The translations under genes were made by a program, and so were the position numbers. Shown here in pieces: positions 956 through 55,025 of a stretch of DNA of 64,000 bases; positions within the stretch are counted from its first letter, which is position 1; the number at the start of each line of letters is the position of its first letter. The stretch lies in the IMG/VR virus record IMGVR_UViG_3300050821_005889; one strand, written 5' to 3'. This stretch comes from a virus. A model generated the notes under the pieces. It did no database searches, had not been told where the DNA came from, and saw nothing but the letters and a program-made list of their open reading frames with translations.

Positions 956-1708
956 TCAAAAGGGAAGGCTTTCATCTTCATTTGGTGGCGGTGCGTTAAA
1001 TATATCATCGGTAATAGATGGCTCTCTGTCTCTATCCAGGTCTGGATGATATTCAGGTGACTCATCTTGTTCCGGTTCCAGGAAGTCATCCGGGGGTGCC
1101 TGTTGTGATGACGGAGGAGACTGTGGCATAGCCCCTTGCCTCATAGTCATCATGGTAGTATATTCCTTACTGCCCTGCATTTTCTCCTTGATGAACTGGG
1201 GCATCTTATCAAAGATTTCCTGTTTCCAGTCGTCATACACCAGAATCTTAGGCGGGTTGACGGCGGGTGGACAGGTAAGCCCTTCTGGTATAGGAGAAAT
1301 GTTTTGAACCTTTTCCCTTACGGTTCCCTTCTTGGAGGTCTCATGTATAACGTTAATCATACACGTCCTTCCAACCAACTTGGTCAGGTCGACTCCTTTC
1401 TCCACTTGTTCCGGGGTTAACTTCTTACCAAACCATGATTCAATATGGTCTCTCAGATGGGAGCCTTCAAACAGGGAGTTGGTGTATTCCCGGCTAAGGG
1501 CGTATGGTTGTGCTGGGGTGCCTTCTTTGAACACGCGGGTCTTGGTAGGGAACTCCCAGCCAATGCGTACTTTCTTTTGTACCTTCACTTCTCCCATGTA
1601 CTCATCCATCACGGTTCCGATTTCAATTACTTCATAGCACCTGGCCACGTAGTTTCCAGCAGGCAGTAACGTTCTCTGCGGCTGTTCGTTTCTTGCAATT
1701 AAGCTCAT
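956..1708 (-). CDS. putative ssDNA-binding protein (DUF669/SSB-like) with acidic C-terminal tip
   Basis: 250 aa. Beta-rich N-terminal core (LPAGNYVARCYEVIEIG...RIGWEF), then a Pro/Gln/acidic linker. The C-terminus ...PPNEDESLPF resembles the SSB DDDIPF tail. Call rests on motif recall only. Confidence 0.5.
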   Translation of the reverse strand: MSLIARNEQPQRTLLPAGNYVARCYEVIEIGTVMDEYMGEVKVQKKVRIGWEFPTKTRVFKEGTPAQPYALSREYTNSLFEGSHLRDHIESWFGKKLTPEQVEKGVDLTKLVGRTCMINVIHETSKKGTVREKVQNISPIPEGLTCPPAVNPPKILVYDDWKQEIFDKMPQFIKEKMQGSKEYTTMMTMRQGAMPQSPPSSQQAPPDDFLEPEQDESPEYHPDLDRDREPSITDDIFNAPPPNEDESLPF

Positions 1709-3301: not shown

Positions 3302-3320
3302 CGTTTTAATTTTAAGTTAG

Positions 3321-3416
3321 TGCGGGGAGCTGGAGTCGAACCAGCAAACTATTCACCAACAAACAAAGGAAGTGGAACCTTTCCCATTGGCCGCTTTACC
3401 ATTTGCGTACCCTCGC
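3321..3416 (-). tRNA. non-canonical tRNA-like gene (96 nt), identity unresolved
   Basis: On the minus strand the acceptor GCGAGGG pairs with TCCCCGC at 6 of 7 positions. There is a 3-bp D-arm (CGC-AAATGGTAAA-GCG), a perfect T-arm (GCTGG-TTCGACT-CCAGC) and discriminator A. However, 45 nt lie between the D- and T-arms instead of about 22, so I could not fold a standard 7-nt anticodon loop. Confidence 0.4.
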
Positions 3417-3699: not shown

Positions 3700-4509
3700 T
3701 TATTCTAAACTGCCCTTATGCAGATAGTTGAAAAATTTCTCAGACGTCATTTCAGAAGCAACCACCGGAACTTCATTGGCTACCTTTAAAGCCTCTATGA
3801 CTGCGGTAAGCATCTTGGTTCTACGAGCCAGGACGTTTGCCCTTTCCAGGTGAGACCATTCACCGGAGAATTTCTGATGTGTATAATCTCCAAGTTCCAT
3901 GATAGTATCCCTTTGTGCCAACATAGGGGTGTACTTGGTACCCTTGTCCAATTTGTCAAGATTGGGGTCTGGCAAAATGTAAGCCTCTTTAACCGTTGTC
4001 TTTTTCACACCGGCTCTCATCTCGGTCTCAAATACATTTTTGTTTTTGTATTCAGGATTAGAGGTAGAAGACCAGTTCTCATCTTCTGTTCGCACAGGAA
4101 TGTTTTCATACATGTCCTTTAGCGTAGCACTTTCCAGAAGCGTCTTTAGTCTAAGTAGTTCCAATGAAGTAAATTCTCCAAAGTGGATTCCATCTATGAC
4201 CAGTTTGGTCTTTGCGACCCCGGAAGAATTTGTTTTTTCCTGGCTGAACAAGGCGTCAATATATTCCTTATTCATTGTCTTTAACCAGTCCAGCTTTTCG
4301 TCAACTGTTGTTACAACCAGTTTGCTGTTACGGGCAGAGGGGTCATCTATAACCCCGGCTCTTGGGGAGTAGGTGTTCTTCTCTCCCTTGAATGCGCCCT
4401 GGGAGCCCTTAAAGAACTTTACATAGTCCTCCAGTCCCTTTTTAAAACTTGAGGCCAGATGGTCTGTTACAGCCAGAAGTACATTTAATTTTAAATCTTT
4501 TTTGTTCAT
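3700..4509 (-). CDS. hypothetical protein (269 aa)
   Basis: One of the longer ORFs of the early block. Followed by a 400-bp non-coding, RNA-like region. No family recognised. Confidence 0.75.
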   Translation of the reverse strand: MNKKDLKLNVLLAVTDHLASSFKKGLEDYVKFFKGSQGAFKGEKNTYSPRAGVIDDPSARNSKLVVTTVDEKLDWLKTMNKEYIDALFSQEKTNSSGVAKTKLVIDGIHFGEFTSLELLRLKTLLESATLKDMYENIPVRTEDENWSSTSNPEYKNKNVFETEMRAGVKKTTVKEAYILPDPNLDKLDKGTKYTPMLAQRDTIMELGDYTHQKFSGEWSHLERANVLARRTKMLTAVIEALKVANEVPVVASEMTSEKFFNYLHKGSLE

Positions 4510-4534: not shown

Positions 4535-5281
4535 TTAATCAATTTTAGACAGCCACACCTTCTTGTTGTTTTTCCAGTTGAAGATAGTTTCAAGCATGGT
4601 AAGGTATTGTTTTACAGAACCGGCATGAACCAATTCTGTTGACATATATTGTAGTTTCTGCATGAATTTATCAAAGTCAAATTCTGGATGTTCTAAGGCA
4701 TGAACCATAGCAAACACAAAGCTGCGCCTTTTGTATCCATCATAGTATTGTTTTATACGATGAATCTTATCGCCAATATCATTGGCTTTCTTTAGTTGGG
4801 TTATCTTAAATGTCCCATTTTCAAATGCCTCTGGAGCTCCCCCCTTTCCTCCTGCCTGCGCCCCGGTGAGAAGGGATAACGAAATCTGGTGGGCAAATCC
4901 ATACTTTTCCTGGAACTCTTTATATTTAACGTAGTCTTCCTTACCTTCATTGATATATCTGTGAAGGTAATCTTCGGCAACCCATTTATCATGGTTGGTA
5001 TTAGCCCTTGTAACCTGTTCTATACCATAGCCTTTTACAATTATAAAGAATACAGGCTTCCCAAGTTGGGCAATGGCAGACAGCCTGTTCTGCCCGTCAA
5101 TAATTTCAAACTTATCATTAACAATGATAGGTATTTGCAACTGCTCTTCCTCTATGGACTTCATGAGCTTTTGAACATGCCGATTGTCAAGTTCCCTGTT
5201 GCCTTTCAGTTTCTTAAAGACTCCATAGTCTTTAGTTTCGAGGACTTTGTTGACCTCCTTGAAGTGTTTAGCTTTTAACAT
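4535..5281 (-). CDS. ParB/Srx-like N-terminal domain protein
   Basis: 248 aa. GNRELDNRHVQKLMKSI ... IIDGQNRLSAI matches the ParB-like nuclease / DGQxR box arrangement. Motif-level call. Confidence 0.6.
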   Translation of the reverse strand: MLKAKHFKEVNKVLETKDYGVFKKLKGNRELDNRHVQKLMKSIEEEQLQIPIIVNDKFEIIDGQNRLSAIAQLGKPVFFIIVKGYGIEQVTRANTNHDKWVAEDYLHRYINEGKEDYVKYKEFQEKYGFAHQISLSLLTGAQAGGKGGAPEAFENGTFKITQLKKANDIGDKIHRIKQYYDGYKRRSFVFAMVHALEHPEFDFDKFMQKLQYMSTELVHAGSVKQYLTMLETIFNWKNNKKVWLSKID

Positions 5282-7255: not shown

Positions 7256-7447
7256 TTATGATTTTTGGTTTGTTATGCCAGTTATATACATCGTTGGCTT
7301 TAGCTTCTTAAACATATCCTCGGCTATCTTAGCCTCTGCTGCCCTTATCTCTATATACTGGCTCTTGGAGTCGTCGTTGAACAGGGAAAAATAAATCCTG
7401 TACTTCTTTAAAGGTAGCGCTGTTTCTTTTCTAAAATTCTGGTTCAT
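7256..7447 (-). CDS. hypothetical protein (63 aa)
   Basis: Overlaps the upstream gene by 4 nt. Confidence 0.55.
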   Translation of the reverse strand: MNQNFRKETALPLKKYRIYFSLFNDDSKSQYIEIRAAEAKIAEDMFKKLKPTMYITGITNQKS

Positions 7448-7758
7448 AAATCTTTGATTGTTTCTGTTTCTAAAACTTGTTCCTGTAATAACTGCTTATT
7501 AGTTTCATTGATAAGACCTATATTCATTTGTATCATCCAGTAATCTATACTACGTTTGTGATACATCATATACCCGGTATCTATTACAAAAAAGTAATAG
7601 CCATTTGTTCCGTCGGTTGAATATACTTTACTGTGCGGAAAGTGTCCCTTTATTTCAAACAGGCACTCCTGTCTTGTTTTAGGAAATAAGTTCCACCTTA
7701 GCAGGTCAATTGTAAGAAAGGTCATAGCCATTATAAACCATAGCATAAATGTTTTCAT
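7444..7758 (-). CDS. membrane protein (104 aa)
   Basis: N-terminal TM helix FMLWFIMAMTFLTIDLL. Confidence 0.6.
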   Translation of the reverse strand: MKTFMLWFIMAMTFLTIDLLRWNLFPKTRQECLFEIKGHFPHSKVYSTDGTNGYYFFVIDTGYMMYHKRSIDYWMIQMNIGLINETNKQLLQEQVLETETIKDL

Positions 7759-7759
7759 A

Positions 7760-8110
7760 TTAGTTCTTTATTTTTTCAAAGCTGAATTTAACCTTTATCA
7801 TCTTCACCGGCTTGAGACCCGTAGGCCATCGCAGGCACTTAATCACTTCGCTTGTGACCTGGTACTGTGTCCTGTCAGCGAGTTCAATCTCATCCATCTT
7901 GGCAAACCATGCAGCAAATATATTCTCTGCCTGCTCCACTATCTTCTTACGTGGTGCCTTGCCGGATATTTGTTCCAGCTCCATTCCGGGCAGCAACCTG
8001 CTCACTTCAAACTTCATAGTAGGTTCAAACCCGGCAAATTCAAGGTCTCCCATTTTGTCATACCGCAGGGTTGCTATCCCTATCTCTAATCCTTTCACAT
8101 TGTCATTCAT
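7760..8110 (-). CDS. hypothetical protein (116 aa), immediately downstream of the isonitrile-synthase gene
   Basis: ATG at 8110, 12 nt after the PvcA-like stop. Confidence 0.65.
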   Translation of the reverse strand: MNDNVKGLEIGIATLRYDKMGDLEFAGFEPTMKFEVSRLLPGMELEQISGKAPRKKIVEQAENIFAAWFAKMDEIELADRTQYQVTSEVIKCLRWPTGLKPVKMIKVKFSFEKIKN

Positions 8111-8122
8111 AGTAGTTCATTT

Positions 8123-9025
8123 TTAAGATTCAAAATTATAAGGTTGTCCATCTTTGTAAACCAGGTGGTACCCGGCAGCCACGGCGTCCTTACGATGCAG
8201 TGTTTCATAAACCCCGTCAGGGTTCACATACACTACACTGTGCCACGGGCTGCGTGTGGCCTTTGGACTACGTATCAATTGGAAGGAATATTTTTTCCCG
8301 TTATTAATACTGTTGTGCATAGATAGCCTTACGCTATCCTTAAACTCATGGGCTATAAGGGCAGAGTATGCTTCATTGCGTAACATCATTTCACGGGTCA
8401 GCAACTTTGCCGCCTTGTGTAATTGGTTACGGGATGGAAATTCTTTGACCGCCAGCTCTTCTTCCATGAATATAGACATTCCCCTGTACAGGTAATTAAC
8501 GTCCGGCTCCATCAGGATGCGGCGCTCTAACTCTACAGGTGTGATGCCGAATTGCTCCACTACCTTAGCCCTCATGTTGGCAAGGTGTCCTTGTCCTCCG
8601 TAGAAGTCTCTAAGGTCATACCAGCGAATAGGGGCTACTTTGGCAAGGTCTATTGACCTCTGCTCATAGTCTTCTACTGTGGTGTCTGATATGCCCAGCA
8701 GGTCTGAGAATATAAAGCCATCACTTACGATGGAGATATTCACGCCCGGAGGGTATATCTTTTTGATTGCATCGTTGAACTGCCCGAAGTTTTTCAGTGA
8801 CAGCTCTTCGCCCAGGTCAGGCAGTGTTCCTATTACCTTGTTCCTGGTATTAGCCGATTTCATCGGGTATCCCAGCATGACAAACGGAATAGGTTCCCCT
8901 GTTGTGACCTTTGAGTTTATCTTGTCGGCAAGTACCTGCTTGCCTACGGTCTCAAATTGGTCAATGGGCGTGGGTGGCATCCTAAAGTCCCGGAACGCCT
9001 CCACAATTGATTCTGTTGTGTTCAT
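8123..9025 (-). CDS. isonitrile (isocyanide) synthase, PvcA/IsnA/Dit1 family
   Basis: 300 aa. Family hallmarks appear in the expected order: GEPIPFVMLGYPMKSANTRNKVIGTLPDLGEE; YPPGVNISIVSDGFIFSDLLGISD; RLSMHNS; SPWHSVV. The length also matches the family. Confidence 0.7.
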   Translation of the reverse strand: MNTTESIVEAFRDFRMPPTPIDQFETVGKQVLADKINSKVTTGEPIPFVMLGYPMKSANTRNKVIGTLPDLGEELSLKNFGQFNDAIKKIYPPGVNISIVSDGFIFSDLLGISDTTVEDYEQRSIDLAKVAPIRWYDLRDFYGGQGHLANMRAKVVEQFGITPVELERRILMEPDVNYLYRGMSIFMEEELAVKEFPSRNQLHKAAKLLTREMMLRNEAYSALIAHEFKDSVRLSMHNSINNGKKYSFQLIRSPKATRSPWHSVVYVNPDGVYETLHRKDAVAAGYHLVYKDGQPYNFES

Positions 9026-9053
9026 TTAGTATTACAGTTTAGTTAGTAGTTTT

Positions 9054-10001
9054 TTATTCAGGTAAAATTATCCTGTCCACCTTACGTTCTATGTTATGGA
9101 ACTTAAGGAACGTGCGGGCAGCAGGCTCATTGAGTTTAAGCAGAACCAAAGGGTCTTTGCGGTACTCCGGGTCAAGCAGTAGCTGGTTGGTTCCGGCAGG
9201 GATTGTTATGGTCTGAGGGCGCAATCCGTGTGGCTTGGTGACAGGTTCCCCTTCAATGATAATGTAGTGCATGCCCAGTTCGGGTACGTTATTGCTTTTA
9301 ACCAGAACCACATCTCCTATCTGCAACCGCGCGGCATGTTCTTCACTGATTCGCACCACATCTTTTTTAGTCAATCGCACCTTGTCATCAAACAATTCAA
9401 GATTAAAAGGAGAGCTCATTAGCTTTGCCGTATCCACATCAGATACAAAGTGCAGTGTGGTACTTGGCAGCAGCGTGACAGCAGAATGTATTAACATCTT
9501 GCCGTCTGCGGGAGTGTGATAAAAGTTAGTATAGACTCCTTCTGTGACAATATCCGTCCTTACATACCTTACGGTATTTTTGAAAGGGTCAGTGCGGTGA
9601 AATACGCTGGAAAGAATCTTTCCTGAAATGAGCGCTTCCAACTGATAGGCTTCATCATGGGCATGTATCTGTGATACCAGTCCAGATTTCCACCGTACCA
9701 TTGTGTAACGGGCACTCGTCATGTCATCAATGGCCAGCGTGGTACGGTCTAAATTGAACTTCATGTCATCAGACGCCTTCGCCCAATTTTGTTTCTTTAA
9801 GGTCTGCGCCAGTTCGCTGAACATATCAAGGGTTACCGCTCTTTTTCGTTGGGCGTCCTGTCCATCTATTACAGGGGTTTCATTCAGGTAATGTTCATAT
9901 CCTGGTCTGTACAGTTTTAGCTGTGCCTCATTGCCCGGAACGCCAGCCGCTATTGTGAGGAGCGGGTTAGTGCTGGCGTGATAATATTTTGTTTCATCCA
10001 T
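9054..10001 (-). CDS. 3-His cupin, cysteine-dioxygenase-type-I-like, with extra C-terminal domain of about 120 aa
   Basis: RYTMVRWKSGLVSQIHAHDEAYQLEALISGKILSSVF parallels the CDO motif (W.xG..S.IHxH...L.G.L....F). A third His (MLIHSAV) lies 57 residues after the HxH. The gene is 28 nt upstream of the PvcA-like gene on the same strand. Confidence 0.5.
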   Translation of the reverse strand: MDETKYYHASTNPLLTIAAGVPGNEAQLKLYRPGYEHYLNETPVIDGQDAQRKRAVTLDMFSELAQTLKKQNWAKASDDMKFNLDRTTLAIDDMTSARYTMVRWKSGLVSQIHAHDEAYQLEALISGKILSSVFHRTDPFKNTVRYVRTDIVTEGVYTNFYHTPADGKMLIHSAVTLLPSTTLHFVSDVDTAKLMSSPFNLELFDDKVRLTKKDVVRISEEHAARLQIGDVVLVKSNNVPELGMHYIIIEGEPVTKPHGLRPQTITIPAGTNQLLLDPEYRKDPLVLLKLNEPAARTFLKFHNIERKVDRIILPE

Positions 10002-10006
10002 AGTAG

Positions 10007-10117
10007 TTATTTATGTTTTGTCTTGCGTTTGAGTTCCCTTTTGTTTTTCACCATGCCTACAAATACCAAGATTACCAGTGAAACCGGTGTGGCAAGGGCA
10101 ACAAAAATGTTCTCCAT
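10007..10117 (-). CDS. micro-protein, TM helix + basic tail (36 aa)
   Basis: MENIFVALATPVSLVILVFVGMVKNKRELKRKTKHK. Fills the gap between 10125..10406 and the cupin gene. Confidence 0.4.
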   Translation of the reverse strand: MENIFVALATPVSLVILVFVGMVKNKRELKRKTKHK

Positions 10118-10124
10118 AATTATT

Positions 10125-10406
10125 TTATTTTAATTGGTCTTCCAAATCAGCCCGTACATCATATACCAGCACATTCAGCTTGCGCTGAAATTCATGCGTG
10201 GTCTTAGATACGGGTTTGTCGTACATCAGTTCATAAATGAACTTGCCAGCTACAAAAGAGGCGTGCAGGGTGCCTATATGTTTTTGGTGGGCATCCGATA
10301 CAGAGTAAACACCCTCTTTAGTAGAGAGGTTAATAGTCAGGTTCTCAAAGTGGAACCCGTCAGTAGTTGTTCCCAGAACGGGAACCTTGTCGGTCAGTAA
10401 TTCCAT
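10125..10406 (-). CDS. hypothetical protein (93 aa)
   Basis: ATG at 10406, in the same-strand array. Confidence 0.6.
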   Translation of the reverse strand: MELLTDKVPVLGTTTDGFHFENLTINLSTKEGVYSVSDAHQKHIGTLHASFVAGKFIYELMYDKPVSKTTHEFQRKLNVLVYDVRADLEDQLK

Positions 10407-10434
10407 AGTAGTTTGTGTTTTAAATTGTTAGTGA

Positions 10435-10803
10435 TTAGTTGTCTCTTTCAGGATTGCTGCTATTAAGCAGGTTTATCAGAATTTCAAACGGGTCTGTGTG
10501 TTTGGCTGCAATGTTGTGATTGGTTCTTGTTAATACCTGCTCCACTACCCATCCTGCATAAAATGCCTGTTGCGGAGTCATTTTATCAAGCCTTTTAACG
10601 GCTCTGGTGTAAACTTCTTTACGGTTCCCAACTACACCGTCCTTGTACACCGTAGCCGTATCCTCGGAGTCGTCCTCTATGGCTTTTGTTATTTTGTTAG
10701 CCTGCTTCTCGGTGATGCCGATAATAGGAATCACGCTGACTTTGGCTTCCCTGTCCTGCTTGGTAAAATCCTCGCTGGAGTGCTTGTCTTTTTTGTTTGT
10801 CAT
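10435..10803 (-). CDS. hypothetical protein (122 aa)
   Basis: ATG at 10803. Confidence 0.65.
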   Translation of the reverse strand: MTNKKDKHSSEDFTKQDREAKVSVIPIIGITEKQANKITKAIEDDSEDTATVYKDGVVGNRKEVYTRAVKRLDKMTPQQAFYAGWVVEQVLTRTNHNIAAKHTDPFEILINLLNSSNPERDN

Positions 10804-12281: not shown

Positions 12282-12562
12282 TATTCTTCTTCCAAAAATC
12301 GTATCAGGTCTCTCTTGGTTTTAAACAGGTCGGTAACACTACCTATTTCATAGGTCACAGGGTCAATTGGATTAGCTGCCCATTGCAGCACTTTGGGTCT
12401 GTCAAACATATCAGAGAACCCGTAAGTGGAACGGATGAGGTAAGGCTTGCCTTTGATGTCCTGCACCTCATAGCTTTCGTCCTGAGAGAATATTTGGTTG
12501 CCCACAGAGAACCATTTTTTATTATTGGACTTGACTTCGGACAGTGTGAGTAGTGTTATCAT
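12281..12562 (-). CDS. hypothetical protein (93 aa)
   Basis: ATGA overlap with the upstream gene. Confidence 0.6.
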   Translation of the reverse strand: MITLLTLSEVKSNNKKWFSVGNQIFSQDESYEVQDIKGKPYLIRSTYGFSDMFDRPKVLQWAANPIDPVTYEIGSVTDLFKTKRDLIRFLEEE

Positions 12563-12879
12563 ATCTTATGTTTAAGTTTTATGACACGGATGATAGTATC
12601 GTCGTAGTTGTGCCTTCTGGCTATAATCTTATCTTTATCAAAGTGAATTAGAGTATATCCTTTGTGACGGTATATACCACCGTCCATTTCAATTAAATCT
12701 ACTCTTTCAGAAACGTTAGTAAGGTCAAATTCCTCCTTTGCAGCTCTGGCTAATGGACAATCTTTCCAATCTCCGAAATCGGCATCCTTAAAATGCTTCG
12801 CCCTTACAATGAGAGGCAACGCCCCGATGCTCCATGCCTGCATCCATGTGATGCGCAGGAGCCATAAAAAGTTTCTCAT
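12559..12879 (-). CDS. paralogue family A member 1 (106 aa)
   Basis: VRAKHFKDADF...DCPLARAAKEEF ... IIRVIKLK. Similar to 12876..13211 and 17226..17480. Confidence 0.65.
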   Translation of the reverse strand: MRNFLWLLRITWMQAWSIGALPLIVRAKHFKDADFGDWKDCPLARAAKEEFDLTNVSERVDLIEMDGGIYRHKGYTLIHFDKDKIIARRHNYDDTIIRVIKLKHKI

Positions 12880-13211
12880 ACCTTAGTTAATTTAATGGTT
12901 CGTATAATATTATCTCCGTAACTAAGCTCGTCTGCGGTAACAGAATCCATTTTAAACAAATGGCTACTATAGTCAGGATGTTTATATGTTACATATAGTC
13001 CTTTGTGATAATCTACCACCATTTCTGTGGTGCTCTCATATACAAGAGTGCCAAAAAATTCTCTTCCTGCTCTTGCTAACGGGCAGTCCGTTGTAGAGCT
13101 AAATCTTGCCTCCTGAAAATGCCTTGCCCTCACAATAAGGGTAACTTCCGGTAAGGTACGTTTGCCGGTTCCGTTGAACCAGTTCCGTATGGAATCAAAT
13201 AATTTATTCAT
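12876..13211 (-). CDS. paralogue family A member 2 (111 aa)
   Basis: VRARHFQEARF...DCPLARAGREFF ... IIRTIKLT. Confidence 0.65.
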   Translation of the reverse strand: MNKLFDSIRNWFNGTGKRTLPEVTLIVRARHFQEARFSSTTDCPLARAGREFFGTLVYESTTEMVVDYHKGLYVTYKHPDYSSHLFKMDSVTADELSYGDNIIRTIKLTKV

Positions 13212-17026: not shown

Positions 17027-17226
17027 ATACCCATGAATTTAGCGCCTTGCCTGCTCATTTGCTTTGCCTCTCCAATGGTTTGCTTTGTTAAAGCCCTCCA
17101 TGAATGAGGTTGCAGGGGTAGTATTGTGTACATAGCGTACATTTTGGCCTGTTGATTGATACCACGTCTTGTGATAGCCCTTAATGTCATAAGGGTGCGA
17201 CAGGTAATAAAGAATTGTGTTTCCAT
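17023..17226 (-). CDS. hypothetical protein (67 aa)
   Basis: Coupled to both neighbours. Confidence 0.5.
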   Translation of the reverse strand: METQFFITCRTLMTLRAITRRGINQQAKMYAMYTILPLQPHSWRALTKQTIGEAKQMSRQGAKFMGI

Positions 17227-17480
17227 TAGGTTAGTTTTAGTGTTCTTATGACTTTATTGGAGTAGTGCAGTTTTTTGGCTTTTGCTTTATCTTTGTTAAA
17301 TACATCATTATCGTATCTCATGTTAAGACTATGATATACGTCTGCTATTCGTACAATATCAACCCCCGCTCTTGTGTACTTGCCTGTTAGTTCTCTTGCC
17401 GCTTTGTCAATTGCGCACCCATGTTCGGGGTCATAAAAGTCTGTACCTTTAAAATGCTTTGCTTTCAGTTGTAGTTTCAT
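17226..17480 (-). CDS. paralogue family A member 3 (84 aa)
   Basis: LKAKHFKGTDF...GCAIDKAARELTG ... VIRTLKLT. Confidence 0.6.
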   Translation of the reverse strand: MKLQLKAKHFKGTDFYDPEHGCAIDKAARELTGKYTRAGVDIVRIADVYHSLNMRYDNDVFNKDKAKAKKLHYSNKVIRTLKLT

Positions 17481-25234: not shown

Positions 25235-26488
25235 ATGCCTGAAAATCAAACAGCGCCTGCGCAAGACCAGACCTCGGTAATACCACCGGAGCTGCTTAGC
25301 GTATTATCTCTCGCAGAAGCCAATGGCGGAGATGCCCTGGCAGACGCAATGAAAATCCTGGAACGCAATGACATTAAAATCGTAGGAGCGGACAACAAAG
25401 GAATTTATGACGACAGGAATACCCCAGGCCAACAGGCTCCTGTACAGCAGAATGCACCGGCACCTGCCCAGGCTCCTAATCCAGCCCCCGCTCCGGCAAA
25501 ACAGAACACAGACCCAAACAACATACTCAATGATTTTATAGAGCCCAATGCGGCTCCGGCAAATAGTATCGTAGCCAACTCCATCGAAGACATCACAAAA
25601 ATCCTTAAGGATAAGTACAATATCCAGGATATACCCACATTCCTTGAGTCGGCTGACAAGTGGCGTTCAAAAGCCACCCAGTCCGAACAGGAGATACAAA
25701 GACTCCAGAACTTTAAAGGAGCATGGGACAACCTTCCCCCTGACTTACAGGACGTAATGGTTGCCTATTATGAGAACCGGGACTATACAGAAATATTAAA
25801 CAGTCCCAAATTCATCAATCTTAATAAGCCTTTTGAACAGCAGGATATAGCTAAGGTAGTTCGCTATCTTAATCCTGACATCAACCTTAGCAATAAGGAT
25901 GCAGATGATTATGTTGACTTGGGAGACATCAAAGACCCCAGCGTAAAGGCTTTAATCAATACAGCAAAGACTCAATACGCCCGTGAACAGGCTTCTTATA
26001 AAGCCAACCTGACCTCGCAAAAAACTGCACAGCAAGAAGACCAACGCAAGTTCGTTTCCTCTGTCGATGCGTCGTTGCAAAAGTTGACTACAACTCTTCC
26101 TACCACAGCCGCAGAGCGCGTCAAAGACGTTGCCGGTGTGCTTAAGAGCGGAGATATAGAAGGCTCTTTGTTCTACCAGGGTGATTTATTGAGAGAGGAT
26201 GCTGCCGAGCGCGCCTACTATGCCCTTCATGGTAAAGCACTTATTGCTGCTGCAAAAGAAAAAATTGCAGAGCTCAATAAGACCATTGAGACCACGGTAA
26301 GTGGCGGTAGCGGTGACCAGCCTCGCCAGTTCAAGAGAGGGTCTAATGGTCAGGCTCCAAAACCACGGGAAGTGGAACATGCAGAGGAGTTCGCAAACGC
26401 GGTATCAAAGAGAGGGTCTGTTTACGACCCTGACCCGCAGAAAGATGAGAACGCCCGTAAAAATGCACGTCCTGCCTGGGTCAGTTAA
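25235..26488 (+). CDS. putative scaffolding protein
   Basis: 417 aa. Contains a Pro/Ala/Gln low-complexity segment (QQAPVQQNAPAPAQAPNPAPAPAKQ) and long helical stretches. Lies directly upstream of the putative capsid gene. Position-based call. Confidence 0.45.
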   Translation: MPENQTAPAQDQTSVIPPELLSVLSLAEANGGDALADAMKILERNDIKIVGADNKGIYDDRNTPGQQAPVQQNAPAPAQAPNPAPAPAKQNTDPNNILNDFIEPNAAPANSIVANSIEDITKILKDKYNIQDIPTFLESADKWRSKATQSEQEIQRLQNFKGAWDNLPPDLQDVMVAYYENRDYTEILNSPKFINLNKPFEQQDIAKVVRYLNPDINLSNKDADDYVDLGDIKDPSVKALINTAKTQYAREQASYKANLTSQKTAQQEDQRKFVSSVDASLQKLTTTLPTTAAERVKDVAGVLKSGDIEGSLFYQGDLLREDAAERAYYALHGKALIAAAKEKIAELNKTIETTVSGGSGDQPRQFKRGSNGQAPKPREVEHAEEFANAVSKRGSVYDPDPQKDENARKNARPAWVS

Positions 26489-32210: not shown

Positions 32211-35200
32211 ATGAAACCTGTAAAATTTTCAGAAGAAGTCTGCGTATTCAGCAATGGTATAGGCTATACGGTTGATGCTGAGTACCTGGGTCTAATTACA
32301 GGTAAACGTTACTATGACGCACTCAACATCCGTCTTCGGCAAAAGTCCGGTGTCAACTCAGGTGTCCCGGTTGCCATCAACGGAGAGCAGCTTAAGTATC
32401 CATTGATTGTTCCTTATCACCTGGGGGGTGGGGGCTTTACCAGCGAGTGTATTGCCAACGCCTTCCTTCCCGCTCAACTATCCTATAAGTGTATCCTTGC
32501 CACAATGGTACAAGGACACCTGTTTGAGATATGGGCAGATAAGGACAGAATCCTTCCTACATTTTTCAGGGCGGACGGTCATGTTGTTGCCGGTGGAAAT
32601 GGGAATCACACTATACCATTCTCTGTTGATTATCCTATACAATATTCTACAAACAATACACCTCTTGGCGGAGAAATTTTTCTTACCGATAACCATGTGG
32701 TTCCGCAGATATATGTAATAAGCGACATGCTTATCAATTCTGGTATTGACCTTGCCTCCGGCATTCGCACAGGGGCATGTACTGATAAATACTTTGCATC
32801 TTACAACTACACAGATTATTCTATCAATACTGCCACACAGGCAGACCATCCTGTTTTTATAGAACTTGCAACTGCACAACCGGCAGGAAGTATTATACTT
32901 GGAACCAGTGGGCTGTTCCCCGGAACCTATCAGTATTCTATTCAATACGTGGACTCACAAGGCAATACTACAGACTGGAGTGAACCTACACCAAATATCC
33001 CGGTAATAGCTAATATAGATTCAGCAAACAGTAATACTTTTCCTTATTTACAGATGGTTGGAGCAGCGCCACAGCCGCTTGCCACAGAAGGTATAGGAAT
33101 TGGTATTCATATCCGTTTCAGGGTCACAAACATTAATAACTACAGCAGCATGAATATAAGACGGGTTGCTTATAATTCAGGTTCGCCTATAGGAACACAA
33201 GGCACAGAGACTATTGTTTATCAATTTAATATTACGGCAGGCCAAATAGGCATTGTAGATATATTTGATTTTGGGGCTACAGGAACATCACTTACCGTAA
33301 GCGCACAAAGAACAACGCAGGCGGTAATAGAGACAGCTAAAGGAATCCGGTACTATGACCGCACTCTTTATCTTGCTAATATTAATTATGCTTCCAGGGA
33401 TGTAAGTGGTGTGACGTTTTTAACGTCCCCTGACACGGCATGGCCTGTGATGAAAAATATCGGAACCATTGGACATCACGACCCGTACAATTCTGTTTAT
33501 TATAAACACTTCATGAACCGGGAGCGTTATGGTTTTGGAGTAAAGTATATAGATGGATTTAATACCCAATCTTTTGTAGGAGCTTTTCCGGGCGCTGGCA
33601 ACCCAACCAATTACGGAGGAGCGTTTAATAATTATATGATGCCCAACCGCAGGGATACAGCTACTTCTATAAACAACTATAGCCAGGATGGGACTACAGT
33701 AACAGTAACAGCATCCGATGTAACCAATACGCCCAATCCTACATTTGAAATATTTGACATGAGTAATGCGGCATCAAAGAATGATACCATTACCTATAAA
33801 AATATATTTGCCACCGCATCTTCTTTTAATGTTAAGCCCACGAGCCAGATTACTATGTATAATGCCAATATAGGTGCCGGGGCTGTAAGCGGAAGTAATG
33901 TTGTTGCTCCGTATTATCCATTCACCCCCAAGAATGAGAACGACCCTGATGTATCGGGGCATAACTTTGTGGTTAACACTGCGGTTTATACCGGCATAGA
34001 TAGTTTTGGGAACCCATTATCAAAAATATCACTACTCAGCACCCCGGCTTATCAACCGAAAGGGTTTGCACAACAGTATCTTACAATGGGAATGTCTATG
34101 GCTGGACTTGCTAATATTCCATCATGGGTTTCTGCATTCTCTATACAGGTAACCCCTCCCGCCGGAAGAGTGGTAACACAGGGGATAGCATTCTATTCCC
34201 TTAATGAAAATCCAACAACCCCAGGAGCAAGCGGAGCTACCAAAGACACCGATAAGATAGTATTCTACTCTCCTGATGCCGAGACAGGACTTACGCTCAT
34301 GCAGGATATTATAGACAATCCAAGTATATACAGCGTGGAGTTTATTTGCCCTCTTGGTTCATTCAGTGAAGTATATAGTTTTCGTATAGCGCAGGATGGA
34401 ATTAATTTCAGTGTACCTACATCTTACGCCGGGTACAATGTTGACATGGTTAATTATGCCAGGGTTTATTACGATAATTCTTTAATCAATACGGACGGGT
34501 TGACCCAAATTGGCAACGGTGACGGGTATGTTAATTTTGGCAGGTTTAGAAACGTTGCCTCTGCTGGCGGGTCTGTAGCAAACATTTTTAATAACTCCAA
34601 TCCTGGCAATGCACAGGTAGGGGTAACAGGAGCTACTGCTGTAACTACTAAATCAGGCAGGCAAACATTCTATAAGATTCAATTAGATGCACCTCTATAC
34701 AGTACCGGCTCTCCCGGAAGTAATATAGACGCTGCTTATGGAACAACTAATCTAAAGAGGTTCACAGAGCCTTTTTATATTGTTAACATAGTTCGCAAGG
34801 ATGCTGTTGTTGACACTTCTGTTAACCAGACACAATATGTTTCAACAGGGCACTATCAGAAAATATCATCTATCATAGGTCAATCAAACGGTGCCGCAAA
34901 GCAATCATTTTTGCTGGTAGACGAAAATCCAGGAGACTGCATTGTAAAAAACGGGACGGATATAAAATACATCTGGATAGAAGACATTAACGGGAACCAG
35001 TTGCCGTGGGTAAATATTTCTATGGCAGGAACGGGGTCTTTTACACTGGCTAATATATTTGGAGATATAGCTAATGGTACCAATAACTCAGGAGCTAACC
35101 CAACCAATATATTAGCAGGAGTTTATTCCCAATCCATTACGCAGGTGAATGGCCTGGATAGATTTTATACTATAATATTTGAATCCATACCGGGACAGAA

Positions 35201-37319
35201 CCAGGCTTATTGTATTCCAACCGGAGGGTACAACATACTTGTTAATTATGATAACAGATTCCCGGTAACCTGTTTTGGCGATAATATAAATGGGGACGCC
35301 GTTTGGGCTCCTATAGATGGAAGTGTTGGTAACGGCGGAGATGCAGAACAGCTATCTCCTGTAGCCTCTGACCATCCGGGAAACTTTAACCTGGACATAG
35401 GATTCCCTTACTTTCATTATGAATGTAACCCCAGGCTGTATATACCTAATTACCTGGGGGGAGGGTCTATTCCTTCCGGCGCTCCGTGGATACAACAGCT
35501 AAACTCAACGGCACTTCACCTCATCAGGCAAATGCTTAATGTATTTACCTGTTCTTCCAAGACACATGTACCATATTGTTTTAACGAGTTACAGGTGACT
35601 GCCAATTACGGGAACCAATACTTTCCTCTTATGAATTATGTAATGAGGTCAAGCAACTGGGACGCCTCTGTGACAGATGTGTCTACCACACAACTTGCAG
35701 GCGGATATTATTCTACCGATTACCTTGATGAGTTCTCTGCCGGAACTTCACCTCATTTTAAAATACAGAACTGGATTTATGGTGGCTTCCGTTTCAAACA
35801 GTCTACTCTCAATTGGAATATAGATTACTCAGAAGGAGAAGTAAATTTTCCTTCCTTCGGTCGTCCGGTAGTAGGATATAATCCACAAACATTTTTCCCA
35901 ACCAGGAGTGTTTGGTCTGTTCAAAGACAGATTAATGACATTAACGACCCTTCGCTTCGCACTTTCCCTGCATTAAACTACAGGGACATTGATGATAACA
36001 CCGGGGAAATAAAACTATTATACTCCGCCCAGAGTGCAGGCCGTGGCGATAACCTGTATGCCTTTACAGAGCATGGCATTTGTTTACTGATGACTGACAA
36101 GTATGTGGTGAGGCAGGGGGCAGGAACTGATTGGACGGTAGTGCAGGGGAGTGGGGATGAGGCGGTAATGCTGGAAGAGTGGCTGCACCGCGATATTGGA
36201 TTAGGTGATGAGATGTGGCGCAGTTTTGCAGAACATGATAATGTTGCCTGGTTTGCCAACAAGCAAAGTATTTATAAATTTGAAAATGAAAAGGCGCATG
36301 ATATTGCAATGCCCTATTTTCACTGGAGGTACCAGCAGGACATACTGGATAATATGCGCCCTGGTTTTCTGTCAGACCTCACAGGGTTCTACGACATCTA
36401 TCATGGAGAATATTGGCTATCCTATAAGGACAGAACTTTTACCTGTTACGGAACAGGAACGTATGAAATACAATCCCCGGTAAACTACAATGGGCTGTAT
36501 TATCAAATAGATGGAGAGTTAGGTGCTGTATTATTGCCCACTCCCCAATATGCAATAGAACAATTGTTTATTTACAATAATACAAACTCTCCTGTTCAGG
36601 TGCAGTTTTTCAGTGGAACAATATATCCTACTTTATGTTTTATAGCGCCCCAGATGTACCGCTCCTTTAATATATACGGGTATGGCAGTAATCTTACAAA
36701 TCCTTTCTTGTGGGAGTGTTCGCCGGATGATATTGCATGGAGCGACTCACTTCTCAATCCGATTGTCCTTGTATGGCAGGACGAACCGGATACCGAAGAG
36801 CGTGGCAAATGGGTGAGCCGGTTTACTTATGAATTTGACAAGTTCGCTTCCGATAATAATAATTCGTATGGGTTCAGAAATGTTATATCGGGACAGGGTG
36901 GAGCATGGCAGCTTGACCGTGGTAACCAGATAAACGGAGCGAATGTGGCGGCAGAGATTACCGGGTTTTGTACAGGAGATAATCATATCCGCATTCAATA
37001 CGGAGCCGAAGCAGAGCAGCCTTATTCTAAGGAGTTTCATAAATTGAGAATCAATGGTAATGTCAAACCTACGCGCATTGAGTTCTTCCAACATTCAGAC
37101 CAGGTAGATAATGATGCCCCTGTTTGTTTCCTGGATATTTCTACAGATTCCCTGTACCTGAAAGACTACTACGGATTTGAGGCTCTTATACCACGCAAGA
37201 GTGCAAGCCCAAATGACAGGCTACAAGGAAGGATGCTTTATTACAAAATAAAATACAATGGAGGAAGTCCACTTTTCCGTGTGACAGACTCAGTTGTCTC
37301 ATTCCATAAGATTAAATAA
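32211..37319 (+). CDS. giant virion-associated protein (1702 aa), function unknown
   Basis: Uninterrupted 5.1-kb ORF in the morphogenesis block. Beta-rich, Gly/Asn/Thr/Ser-rich composition. Confidence 0.6.
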   Translation: MKPVKFSEEVCVFSNGIGYTVDAEYLGLITGKRYYDALNIRLRQKSGVNSGVPVAINGEQLKYPLIVPYHLGGGGFTSECIANAFLPAQLSYKCILATMVQGHLFEIWADKDRILPTFFRADGHVVAGGNGNHTIPFSVDYPIQYSTNNTPLGGEIFLTDNHVVPQIYVISDMLINSGIDLASGIRTGACTDKYFASYNYTDYSINTATQADHPVFIELATAQPAGSIILGTSGLFPGTYQYSIQYVDSQGNTTDWSEPTPNIPVIANIDSANSNTFPYLQMVGAAPQPLATEGIGIGIHIRFRVTNINNYSSMNIRRVAYNSGSPIGTQGTETIVYQFNITAGQIGIVDIFDFGATGTSLTVSAQRTTQAVIETAKGIRYYDRTLYLANINYASRDVSGVTFLTSPDTAWPVMKNIGTIGHHDPYNSVYYKHFMNRERYGFGVKYIDGFNTQSFVGAFPGAGNPTNYGGAFNNYMMPNRRDTATSINNYSQDGTTVTVTASDVTNTPNPTFEIFDMSNAASKNDTITYKNIFATASSFNVKPTSQITMYNANIGAGAVSGSNVVAPYYPFTPKNENDPDVSGHNFVVNTAVYTGIDSFGNPLSKISLLSTPAYQPKGFAQQYLTMGMSMAGLANIPSWVSAFSIQVTPPAGRVVTQGIAFYSLNENPTTPGASGATKDTDKIVFYSPDAETGLTLMQDIIDNPSIYSVEFICPLGSFSEVYSFRIAQDGINFSVPTSYAGYNVDMVNYARVYYDNSLINTDGLTQIGNGDGYVNFGRFRNVASAGGSVANIFNNSNPGNAQVGVTGATAVTTKSGRQTFYKIQLDAPLYSTGSPGSNIDAAYGTTNLKRFTEPFYIVNIVRKDAVVDTSVNQTQYVSTGHYQKISSIIGQSNGAAKQSFLLVDENPGDCIVKNGTDIKYIWIEDINGNQLPWVNISMAGTGSFTLANIFGDIANGTNNSGANPTNILAGVYSQSITQVNGLDRFYTIIFESIPGQNQAYCIPTGGYNILVNYDNRFPVTCFGDNINGDAVWAPIDGSVGNGGDAEQLSPVASDHPGNFNLDIGFPYFHYECNPRLYIPNYLGGGSIPSGAPWIQQLNSTALHLIRQMLNVFTCSSKTHVPYCFNELQVTANYGNQYFPLMNYVMRSSNWDASVTDVSTTQLAGGYYSTDYLDEFSAGTSPHFKIQNWIYGGFRFKQSTLNWNIDYSEGEVNFPSFGRPVVGYNPQTFFPTRSVWSVQRQINDINDPSLRTFPALNYRDIDDNTGEIKLLYSAQSAGRGDNLYAFTEHGICLLMTDKYVVRQGAGTDWTVVQGSGDEAVMLEEWLHRDIGLGDEMWRSFAEHDNVAWFANKQSIYKFENEKAHDIAMPYFHWRYQQDILDNMRPGFLSDLTGFYDIYHGEYWLSYKDRTFTCYGTGTYEIQSPVNYNGLYYQIDGELGAVLLPTPQYAIEQLFIYNNTNSPVQVQFFSGTIYPTLCFIAPQMYRSFNIYGYGSNLTNPFLWECSPDDIAWSDSLLNPIVLVWQDEPDTEERGKWVSRFTYEFDKFASDNNNSYGFRNVISGQGGAWQLDRGNQINGANVAAEITGFCTGDNHIRIQYGAEAEQPYSKEFHKLRINGNVKPTRIEFFQHSDQVDNDAPVCFLDISTDSLYLKDYYGFEALIPRKSASPNDRLQGRMLYYKIKYNGGSPLFRVTDSVVSFHKIK

Positions 37320-38090: not shown

Positions 38091-39886
38091 TGGCTGACGA
38101 TTTAAAATATAATGACATAGGGGAAGACCAGGTAGAAGACTCTAATGACTCAGAGGTAATTACCGGGCAGGACACCCCTGCGGAAGCATACGGTGCCGGT
38201 GTCGCCGCTTACCAGCAGGCTGCAAGAAAAAATAAAGACAACGGCTCAACTCCGTATAGCCCCATAGCCGCAGCCCTTTCCAGAACACGCAACAGTGCGC
38301 AACAGATTCCGGGAGTCCCCGGAAGTATTTCTACAGACCCTGGTACACCAGGGATAACAAGAGACCAGGCATATCCTTCCGCTCCTGTAAGGATGCAGGA
38401 TTTGCCGGGAAGGTATTTTGGTGCCACTCCTATATTTCTTGGTGGCCAGCCACTGTATCCTGTATCATTGGAAGAAGCCCGTAGGCGTTCCAATAATGAT
38501 TACATGGCGTCACAGGAACAGGCAAGGCAACAGAATGAAAACACGCTGTTCACAAATCTTACAAGGCAAAAGGTAGCCCCTGCATACCAGGAAAAGGCGG
38601 ATAAGATGCTGGATGACCTTTATGATGATTACTCAAAAACATTTGCGCAGAAAGGAAGATATGGTGCAGTAGCCGCTTATAACGACCCTAATAGCCCTGA
38701 GTTCAAAGAGTTTACACAGAAGTACCATAACTACCTGCAATCTACAGAGGCCATCAATCACATGGACACTCTTTTGTCGCAGGCGCAACAACGTCCACCC
38801 GATGAATTATCCCCCGCTACCAAAGCCCAAATTATAAAATTCCAGACCGGAGGGTTTATGAACCCGGACGGCACTGTTGATACACAGACCCTACAAAAGT
38901 CTTATGTTGACCTGGCTAAATATATGGGCTATGATGGTATTATAAAAAGCATTGCACCCTATATAGCAAAGGATAGTGAATCATTTTTCCAGCAAGGAGC
39001 CAAAGATGCAAACGGGAAAGAAATATCTCCTCTTGATAATGACCACCAGTTTATAACAGAGGTTAAGAAAAATCCAAATTGGGACAAGCTCATTGATAGT
39101 AAGTATGTTCCTATGCTGCTTAGTCATGCCGGATTAAACCCTGCTCTCAATGACCCTAAAGCAGCGCACGATTATCTTAAGCAGATACTTCCTGAGTTCG
39201 TAGAAAAGCATTTCTATGATGTGCAAAGGTCTTCTGCAAGTGCCGGAGAAAATAAGGTGGCCAATGAAGGTAATTGGGTAGTTGATTTTGCCAACCAGGT
39301 AAGAGGCAGTAATGTAGATGGAGCCGTTCACACCGGCGGAGAAAATGATAACAACCCTCGCGGTGTGATGATGCAGGCTCCGGGAGACATGTCTACCAAT
39401 ATCACTAATCCTAATTTCTTAAAATATATTGTAACAGGACAGGATGCCAACGGCAACGCTATTACAGCCCAGGACACCCGCAAAACAATAGTTAATCCTA
39501 TATCCGGTTTATGGAAGGACAATTCCACCGGAGATATATATAAAGTTCCTGCTGCTGCCAAAAATCCAACTACAGGAGATATTGATTGGGGGCAGGTACG
39601 CACTCCGGCTAATAAAGTAACTAATATGTGGACGGATGTAATAGTTCCGTATTACAGAAGTGTAGGAGGGACTGGGGCAGAAACTAAATTGACCCAGATT
39701 CAAAAGAAAATGTGGACACAGCAACCGCAGGAAGCACAGGCTCTTGGTATTCCTCCACTCCCTAAAGGTGGAAATGCAGCCCCGGCAGCATCTGCCCCGG
39801 CTAAAACTATAGTAAGAACAGGAGTTGACAAGACAGGGAAAAAAGTAGTTCAATATTCAGACGGTACTGTAGGATATGCCCAATAA
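38090..39886 (+). CDS. hypothetical virion-module protein (598 aa)
   Basis: TAATG overlap with the upstream gene. Confidence 0.7.
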   Translation: MADDLKYNDIGEDQVEDSNDSEVITGQDTPAEAYGAGVAAYQQAARKNKDNGSTPYSPIAAALSRTRNSAQQIPGVPGSISTDPGTPGITRDQAYPSAPVRMQDLPGRYFGATPIFLGGQPLYPVSLEEARRRSNNDYMASQEQARQQNENTLFTNLTRQKVAPAYQEKADKMLDDLYDDYSKTFAQKGRYGAVAAYNDPNSPEFKEFTQKYHNYLQSTEAINHMDTLLSQAQQRPPDELSPATKAQIIKFQTGGFMNPDGTVDTQTLQKSYVDLAKYMGYDGIIKSIAPYIAKDSESFFQQGAKDANGKEISPLDNDHQFITEVKKNPNWDKLIDSKYVPMLLSHAGLNPALNDPKAAHDYLKQILPEFVEKHFYDVQRSSASAGENKVANEGNWVVDFANQVRGSNVDGAVHTGGENDNNPRGVMMQAPGDMSTNITNPNFLKYIVTGQDANGNAITAQDTRKTIVNPISGLWKDNSTGDIYKVPAAAKNPTTGDIDWGQVRTPANKVTNMWTDVIVPYYRSVGGTGAETKLTQIQKKMWTQQPQEAQALGIPPLPKGGNAAPAASAPAKTIVRTGVDKTGKKVVQYSDGTVGYAQ

Positions 39887-54934: not shown

Positions 54935-55007
54935 TGCGGTGTAGAGCAGTTGGTAGCTCGTCAGGCTCATAACTTGAAGGCCGGTGGTTCGAGTCCACTC
55001 ACCGCTA
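54935..55007 (+). tRNA. tRNA-Met-type (anticodon CAU)
   Basis: Cloverleaf folded by hand. D-arm GAGC-AGTTGGTA-GCTC. Anticodon arm TCAGG-CTCATAA-CTTGA. T-arm GGTGG-TTCGAGT-CCACT. The acceptor has 6 bp plus a U1:U72 mismatch, with discriminator A. No encoded CCA. Confidence 0.7.
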
Positions 55008-55025
55008 CAACTAAACTAAAAACGA

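Follow-up and report, generated by a model that had tools for sequence, protein, structure and literature searches.

The virus record IMGVR_UViG_3300050821_005889 of IMG/VR was analyzed over a stretch of 64,000 nucleotides, referred to here as the window. An initial annotation of this DNA, made from the letters alone, had proposed that two neighboring genes code for an isonitrile synthase and a cupin-type oxygenase. Isonitriles are an uncommon class of natural products with high reactivity and an ability to bind metals and, to our knowledge, all described isonitrile pathways are cellular. The locus raises the question of whether a phage carries machinery to make such a compound, and of what the components of that machinery are. 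The two open reading frames (ORFs) are found on the minus strand as had been described, at 8123..9025 (300 amino acids) and 9054..10001 (315 amino acids), separated by 28 nt. The analysis presented here supports the assignment of the first as an isonitrile-synthase-like enzyme, divides the product of the second into a cupin and a novel C-terminal domain (C-domain), and adds a third gene, named orf116. On balance, we lean towards the view that the genes from 10001 to 7760 constitute a self-contained mobile phage cassette for a multi-subunit isonitrile-forming enzyme that makes a small reactive effector.

The product of 8123..9025 belongs to the IsnA/PvcA/Dit1 family and would be the catalytic core of the cassette. 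Comparison with Pfam revealed a strongly significant match to PF05141 (DIT1_PvcA), with an E value of 4e-65 and a score of 220.5 bits (cut-off 26.4), that extends over profile positions 1-272 of 273, and the isonitrile synthase call is upheld. All of the sequence blocks that had been quoted for this protein, GEPIPFVMLGYPMKSANTRNKVIGTLPDLGEE, YPPGVNISIVSDGFIFSDLLGISD, RLSMHNS, and SPWH, are found in it. Matches to the PDB entries 3e59 (PvcA) and 9dhm/9dh4 were obtained at E values of about 5e-28 over residues 14-298, with about 30% identity. Conserved residues are retained, as about 20 residues that are invariant in the phage clade are common to both solved synthases; those identical in 3e59 and 9dhm include K56, S57, N59, K63, P69, D70, E73, D102, G103, F106, Y120, R233, S235, H237, K245, W261, and H262. 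The score against the NCBIfam PvcA equivalog NF045653 (L-tyrosine isonitrile synthase) was 112.9 bits, below the cut-off of 600; the phage enzyme is hence a member of the family and no PvcA orthologue, and the substrate of PvcA is not transferable to it. The usual partners are absent, as the initial annotation had stated: the window includes no TauD-type, P450, or glycosyltransferase gene, and no match to a TauD-type dioxygenase was found among 80 window ORFs (E ≤ 0.001) or in the synthase and cupin ORFs, which were scanned separately.

In the 315-amino acid protein encoded upstream, amino acids 1-197 (9411..10001, minus strand) form a predicted thiol-dioxygenase-like cupin with three histidines. 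The sequence WKSGLVSQIHAHDEAYQLEALISGKILSSVF, from which a metal site parallel to that of cysteine dioxygenase (CDO) had been proposed, is located at amino acids 104-134, and the additional histidine, H172, is 57 residues past H115. Taken alone, the protein showed no Pfam, PHROG, or NCBIfam match, nor a match to CDO_I or PCO_ADO even at E ≤ 1; its sole sequence match in PDB was a rat-type CDO (E 1.1), with the alignment falling precisely on the HxH block. An initial search by word index yielded a single homologue (P0002, 33% identity); its contig also has a terminase, and its gene is likewise directly upstream of one for a PF05141 protein. A second search, with a profile made from the homologues at the IMG/VR loci, found 156 proteins of about 330 amino acids, none of them with a Pfam domain. 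The profile of a 70-sequence family matched 20 distinct CDO entries of PDB (E 3e-4 to 4e-3) and essentially nothing else, and 35 of the 70 members weakly matched PF05995 (CDO_I; best E 6e-5), while nine matched PCO_ADO (PF07847). The proposed relation to CDO was thus borne out by the profiles at the level of the family and not for the window protein alone, which has no CDO_I match.

An AlphaFold (AF2) model made from the family alignment was of high confidence (predicted local distance difference test [pLDDT] 92.6, predicted template modeling score [pTM] 0.89). The top 19 or so Foldseek matches of the cupin model were all thiol dioxygenases (E 6e-8 to 1e-5, probability 1.00), and included the Bacillus subtilis CDO (3eqe, 4qm9), the mercaptosuccinate dioxygenase MSDO (8vni), the rat and human CDO, MDO, and PCO4/5. 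By family profile, AlphaFold model, and Foldseek, the modeled cupin is nearest to the thiol dioxygenases (CDO, MDO, PCO), and the cupin call made for this protein stands. The invariant residues of the N-terminal half in the 70-sequence alignment are P43, R86, W104, H113, H115, E122, G127, H172, and H184. Three of these, H113 (9663..9665), H115 (9657..9659), and H172 (9486..9488), all on the minus strand, are the putative metal ligands, since in sequence alignments they coincide with the CDO iron ligands H86, H88, and H140. As in CDO, the position of the canonical cupin glutamate is non-acidic, and the equivalent of CDO C93 is Q120 in the window protein and leucine in the consensus. In CDO, Ser153-His155-Tyr157 is a catalytic triad and Arg60 binds the substrate carboxylate. 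An SLH motif of the family aligns with CDO S153-L-H155, and its RDGRDN loop with the RTGHKN hairpin of CDO. The triad is not fully matched: the histidine is invariant (H184), and the serine is present in the family and replaced by T182 in the window protein. The invariant R86 is located in the β-strand equivalent to that of CDO Arg60, and HMMER pairs it with CDO R57; the F84-R86-I88 i/i+2/i+4 pattern fits Y58-R60-L62 better and would make R86 a candidate equivalent of Arg60.

To define the unit to which these genes belong, hidden Markov models for the cupin, the C-domain, orf116, and the synthase were run on 52 loci, and the counts given here refer to distinct phage-clade loci. The synthase and cupin genes, whose co-occurrence in related phages had been put forward as a check, are adjacent in many related phage contigs. 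The pairing as first described is supported, with the refinement that the near-constant partners of the synthase are the C-domain and the product of the ORF at 7760..8110 and the cupin is facultative, being found in about three quarters of the loci and missing from about a quarter. The C-domain, a novel β-rich domain encoded at 9054..9410 (minus strand; amino acids 198-315 plus the stop codon) that had been noticed and left unassigned, directly precedes the synthase in all informative loci but one (24 of 25; the exception is L044). The ORF at 7760..8110 (minus strand), which had been listed as an optional co-expression partner, is orf116; it codes for 116 amino acids with the motif IELADR, and a homologue is present directly downstream of the synthase in all 27 loci with sequence there. 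The spacers are of 28 nt between the partner protein and the synthase (9026..9053) and of 12 nt from the synthase stop codon to the orf116 start codon (8111..8122). The short spacers and the shared strand suggest co-transcription of the cassette, and a consensus scan found no terminator-like site in either spacer; minus-strand matches near the cassette were at 8733-8718, within the synthase ORF, and 10328-10312, with a total near chance level. Across the loci, the sequences that flank the cassette have no further gene family in common.

Gene fusions link the same components. In the cupin-less loci L004, L005, L011, and L036 the C-domain is a standalone ORF of about 110-170 amino acids, and in the cupin-less locus L042 it is part of the synthase ORF. 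C-domain-synthase fusions are found in P0068, P0289, and P0326 as well as in L042, the reverse order, synthase-C-domain, in P0372, and the synthase and orf116 in a single ORF in L029. A search with the C-domain profile found 160 cluster representatives among 1.84 billion, of which about 84 are fused to a cupin, about 62 are short, and four are fused to a synthase. The invariant residues of this domain are G229, S236, H245, I247, G251, K256, G259, R261, and H302. Its AF2 model (about 115 amino acids) has a pLDDT of 90, and no analogue was found in PDB (best Foldseek E 0.5; best match of the profile against PDB L24, E 0.62); an assignment as a KOW or SH3 domain was not adopted, as the resemblance is below significance. 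The orf116 alignment has the invariant residues G11, G21, A61, E76, D79, R80, and G98, and the protein showed no Pfam, PHROG, NCBIfam, PADLOC, or PDB match. None of the three cassette proteins has a match in PHROGs or PADLOC, and the two partners have none in Pfam or NCBIfam either. The P0372 fusion prompted the idea that orf116 is a diverged copy of the C-domain, which was ruled out (hhalign probability 0.2%); the C-terminal portion of P0372 proved to be a true C-domain.

Some variations of the cassette were also observed. Two copies of the C-domain are found in the loci L030 and L035 and with the proteins P0241 and P0163; the second copy is either encoded on its own, between the genes for the cupin protein and the synthase, or is contained with the first in one protein of about 460 amino acids. 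Five related loci have, in or beside the cassette, a member of an extra small family of 83-106 amino acids with no Pfam match (L016:2247-2567, L017:3701-3952, L019:2982-3260, L026:2983-3243, and L035:965-1267), which is not found in the window and may be an optional fourth component. In one locus two ORFs, one of them weakly methyltransferase-like, are inserted between the cassette genes (L003:5453-5980 and L003:6906-7649). Genes next to the cassette in other loci code for a DSP-PTPase-like phosphatase (L004:4274-4732), a PolyA_pol/CCA-type nucleotidyltransferase (L007:7483-8868), and a phosphoribosyltransferase with a LOG-like protein (L011:5165-6593).

The phage nature of the window is indicated by genes for a P22-like portal, a small terminase, and a 506-amino acid large terminase, together with HNH endonucleases, a Holliday-junction resolvase, and MazG. 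Three independent assemblies have 72,060, 72,070, and 72,202 nt, and at least two of them start at different points, which indicates that the genome, of about 72 kb, is complete and circularly permuted. The large terminase has only 28% identity to Synechococcus podophages, and no match was found in 50,697 phage records by megablast of 7400..10500 or by tblastn of the synthase or of the 417-amino acid ORF at 25235..26488, an ORF with no family match. The cassette is located within a leftward block of about 19 kb that consists of about 40 small genes with no known function.

The window synthase has about 300 related proteins, with 52-61% identity among the 119 matches listed. Clade-specific patterns were found in 6 IMG/VR contigs, and 39 metagenome loci were obtained in all, about 30 of which are of the phage clade. 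The contexts of related loci that were examined are phage-like, and one phage of 134 kb was encountered in more than 24 samples. None of 185,579 GTDB species genomes has the clade-specific peptide patterns in two exact-pattern scans, in which the window protein itself matches one of the two patterns only and divergent copies could be missed. Relatives with about 31% identity on large cellular contigs are PF05141-TauD fusions with neither partner (e.g. L047), which is the canonical arrangement. From these sequence searches the synthase clade looks phage-restricted, with the cassette present in hundreds of phage contigs and in none of the cellular reference genomes searched. The G+C content of the cassette, 46.1%, compares with 39.8% and 41.3% in the flanking 5 kb and is in the top 6% of equal-sized windows, a shift consistent with horizontal acquisition. 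Taken with the unconserved flanks and the scattered cupin-less cassettes discussed below, it indicates that the cassette is mobile and that the cupin has been lost or gained repeatedly.

For the substrate, product, timing, and biological role of the cassette, we infer the following scheme. By homology, the PF05141 subunit would condense the α-amino group of an amino acid with C2 of ribulose-5-phosphate, rendering an α-isocyano acid or, as is the case with yeast Dit1, the N-formyl hydration product. The C-domain and orf116 would be obligatory subunits that act with the synthase and are unique to the phage clade, and the C-domain would tether the cupin in most cassettes, including that of the window. 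The cupin could be an O2-dependent tailoring or substrate-supplying enzyme for a cysteine-like thiol/carboxylate compound, one option being the oxidation of cysteine or isocyano-cysteine to the sulfinate. As the synthases of cupin-less and cupin-bearing cassettes intermingle, tailoring seems likelier than an obligatory supply of substrate. The resulting small reactive metabolite would be made during host takeover and would act on metalloproteins or metal pools of the host or of competitors.

In a different reading, the product is irrelevant and the cassette is an instrument of metabolic sabotage that drains ribulose-5-phosphate or an amino acid, or releases formaldehyde. The known IsnA/PvcA reaction does use a pentose-phosphate intermediate and an amino acid, and phage auxiliary genes often rewire central metabolism, but two dedicated co-evolving partners and a frequent tailoring-type oxygenase would be hard to explain in this way, and we regard sabotage as very improbable. 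A somewhat better, though still unlikely, candidate is the modification of a macromolecular amine (a protein N-terminus, an aminoacyl-tRNA, or an amino-bearing DNA or RNA base), with the C-domain or orf116 as a targeting or adaptor module. PCO/ADO-type enzymes, which act on the N-terminal cysteine of proteins, are among the sequence and structure neighbors of the cupin, the C-domain is faintly reminiscent of KOW/SH3-like barrels (L24 and the low-probability Foldseek matches), and some related loci have a CCA-adding-type nucleotidyltransferase, a PTPase-like phosphatase, or a methyltransferase-like ORF nearby. However, the nucleic-acid-binding resemblance of the C-domain does not reach significance, target-like or DNA-hypermodification genes are neither shared by the flanks of the loci nor found in the window, and the characterized PF05141 enzymes use free amino acids (PMC7345447).

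Several points weigh against the proposal of an isonitrile-forming complex with an active oxygenase. No member of the phage clade has a known substrate, product, or activity, and Dit1, a PF05141 member, makes N-formyl-tyrosine and releases no isonitrile, so the family is not confined to the release of free isonitriles (PMC7345447). The putative physical complex is deduced from gene fusions only, and the presumed early or host-takeover timing only from the place of the cassette in the leftward block of small genes. With respect to the cupin, CDO Tyr157 is not conserved: a tyrosine is found at +1, not +2, in the consensus (SLHYL), and a phenylalanine in the window protein (TLHFV). The register of R86 and Arg60 differs between MAFFT and HMMER, and hhalign covers amino acids 99-144 only. 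In a simple neighbor-joining tree of the synthases the cupin-less cassettes are polyphyletic, scattered among the cupin-bearing ones, so that the core function can evidently do without the cupin.

The cupin copy of the window is in addition an unusually diverged one. Of 72 positions with at least 90% conservation among the other 69 family members, 29 are changed in the window protein, as compared with a median of 2 for the family and with 8 in the next most deviant member. Twenty-six of the 29 changes fall in the cupin, and the C-domain is almost intact. The changes include the whole near-invariant PEHTRDGRDN loop, as well as R167 and F84. As a result, cupin activity in this phage is less certain than the motif suggests, and the domain may be inactive. 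It is possible, though we would not expect it, that the window cupin is a decaying or non-catalytic relic and that the cassette works as C-domain, synthase, and orf116, a reading that agrees with the loss of the loop and with the existence of the five cupin-less cassettes of independent position in the tree. On the other side, the strictly invariant residues R86, W104, H113, H115, E122, G127, H172, and H184 are all kept, the ORF is intact, and the domain is modeled with high confidence. The window cupin may be active with an altered specificity or heading for loss.

The phage enzyme shares with the synthases of the IsnA/IsnB and PvcA/PvcB systems the full-length PF05141 family and the core residues, and in all of them an oxygenase fold of the non-haem-iron type is encoded beside the synthase. 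However, the oxygenase of IsnA/IsnB and PvcA/PvcB is a TauD-type Fe/2-oxoglutarate dioxygenase, whereas that of the phage is a 3-His cupin of the 2-oxoglutarate-independent type; the two extra near-constant partners are missing from the cellular loci examined, and the phage cassette is viral while the canonical IsnA/PvcA pathways are cellular. Yeast Dit1/Dit2 and the fungal isocyanide synthases (ICS) include PF05141 enzymes that accept amino acids, from which it follows that the substrates of the family go beyond Tyr and Trp. Fungal examples are the ICS-TauD fusions and the CrmA protein, in which the ICS is joined to regions like those of nonribosomal peptide synthetases (NRPS). The yeast and fungal synthases are partnered by a P450, by a TauD domain, or by domains of the NRPS-like type, and they are not known to be accompanied by the C-domain, orf116, or a CDO-like cupin. 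With the thiol dioxygenases (CDO, PF05995; 3-mercaptopropionate and mercaptosuccinate dioxygenases; PCO; and ADO) the phage cupin has in common the cupin fold and the HxH...H pattern with no canonical glutamate. The likeness to CDO extends to the SLH motif, the C-terminal hairpin motif, and the invariant arginine in the Arg60 strand; the differences are that Tyr157 and Cys93 are not conserved and that the window protein has no Pfam match. Unlike the thiol dioxygenases, the phage cupin is fused to a novel C-domain within an isonitrile cassette. The literature searched yielded no paper in which an isonitrile or isocyanide synthase is connected with phages or with cysteine dioxygenase, in agreement with the initial annotation, in which no pairing of the synthase with a CDO-like cupin was known, and none on a phage. 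While the PF05141 enzyme family is a known one, the viral clade, the two partner families, and the CDO-like oxygenase are novel.

Other features of the window were recorded. Immediately beside the cassette is the 36-amino acid hydrophobic ORF at 10007..10117 that had been pointed out in the initial annotation, and neither this ORF nor the 93-amino acid ORF at 10125..10406 has a homologue in the related loci. The leftward block includes, on the minus strand, genes for an NGO0469-family phage replication initiator (956..1708; E 3e-53), a DUF7873 protein (3700..4509), and a ParB/GmrSD_N-like protein (4535..5281); a His_Phos_1 (histidine phosphatase) match was also found among the window ORFs. Three paralogous small genes (12559..12879, 12876..13211, and 17226..17480, minus strand), the first two an overlapping tandem, share the motif ...VRA+HF...DCPLARA... 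The structural block includes two giant ORFs on the plus strand, 32211..37319 (1702 amino acids) and 39876..45152 (1758 amino acids); the former, scanned alone, had no PHROG match, and no structural or polymerase family is among the window-wide Pfam and PHROG matches listed. DNA hypermodification was considered and rejected, as no thymidylate-synthase-like, kinase, aGPT-Pplase, or deazaguanine gene is among these matches. A tRNA-like gene at 3320..3394 (minus strand) was reported by ARAGORN as 'tRNA-???' with the two-base anticodon 'gt', and a normal tRNA-Met is located at 54935..55008. A Shine-Dalgarno-like 4-mer precedes only 6 of 82 window ORFs, and the leaders are A-rich, many with ACTAACTAAAC-like or ACTACTATG motifs (starts e.g. 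20417, 5712, 6788, 13575, 14357, 16353, and 9025). Shine-Dalgarno-like motifs are rare (0-20%) in related cassette-bearing loci too, which have G+C contents of 27 to 63%. The translation signals of the window resemble the Bacteroidota type, a comparison made with no positive control.

The cassette has only 2.2 kb and is self-contained, hence it is open to a direct test by heterologous expression, and it defines two new protein families with clear invariant residues. More tentatively than for the cassette itself, we consider that phages of uncultivated, mostly soil-type hosts could make a novel, probably sulfur-containing isonitrile effector with a three-component machine, usually with a tethered oxygenase. 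If this is true, the isonitrile product would be, for example, an inhibitor of metalloenzymes or defense enzymes or a weapon against competitors, and the phage-restricted clade would be a rare, possibly the first, instance of natural-product machinery for a reactive warhead that is confined to phages. With a synthase clade that is apparently phage-specific, the biosynthesis of isonitriles would gain a new enzymatic logic, and a new class of phage auxiliary function would follow, the synthesis of small-molecule warheads in infection.

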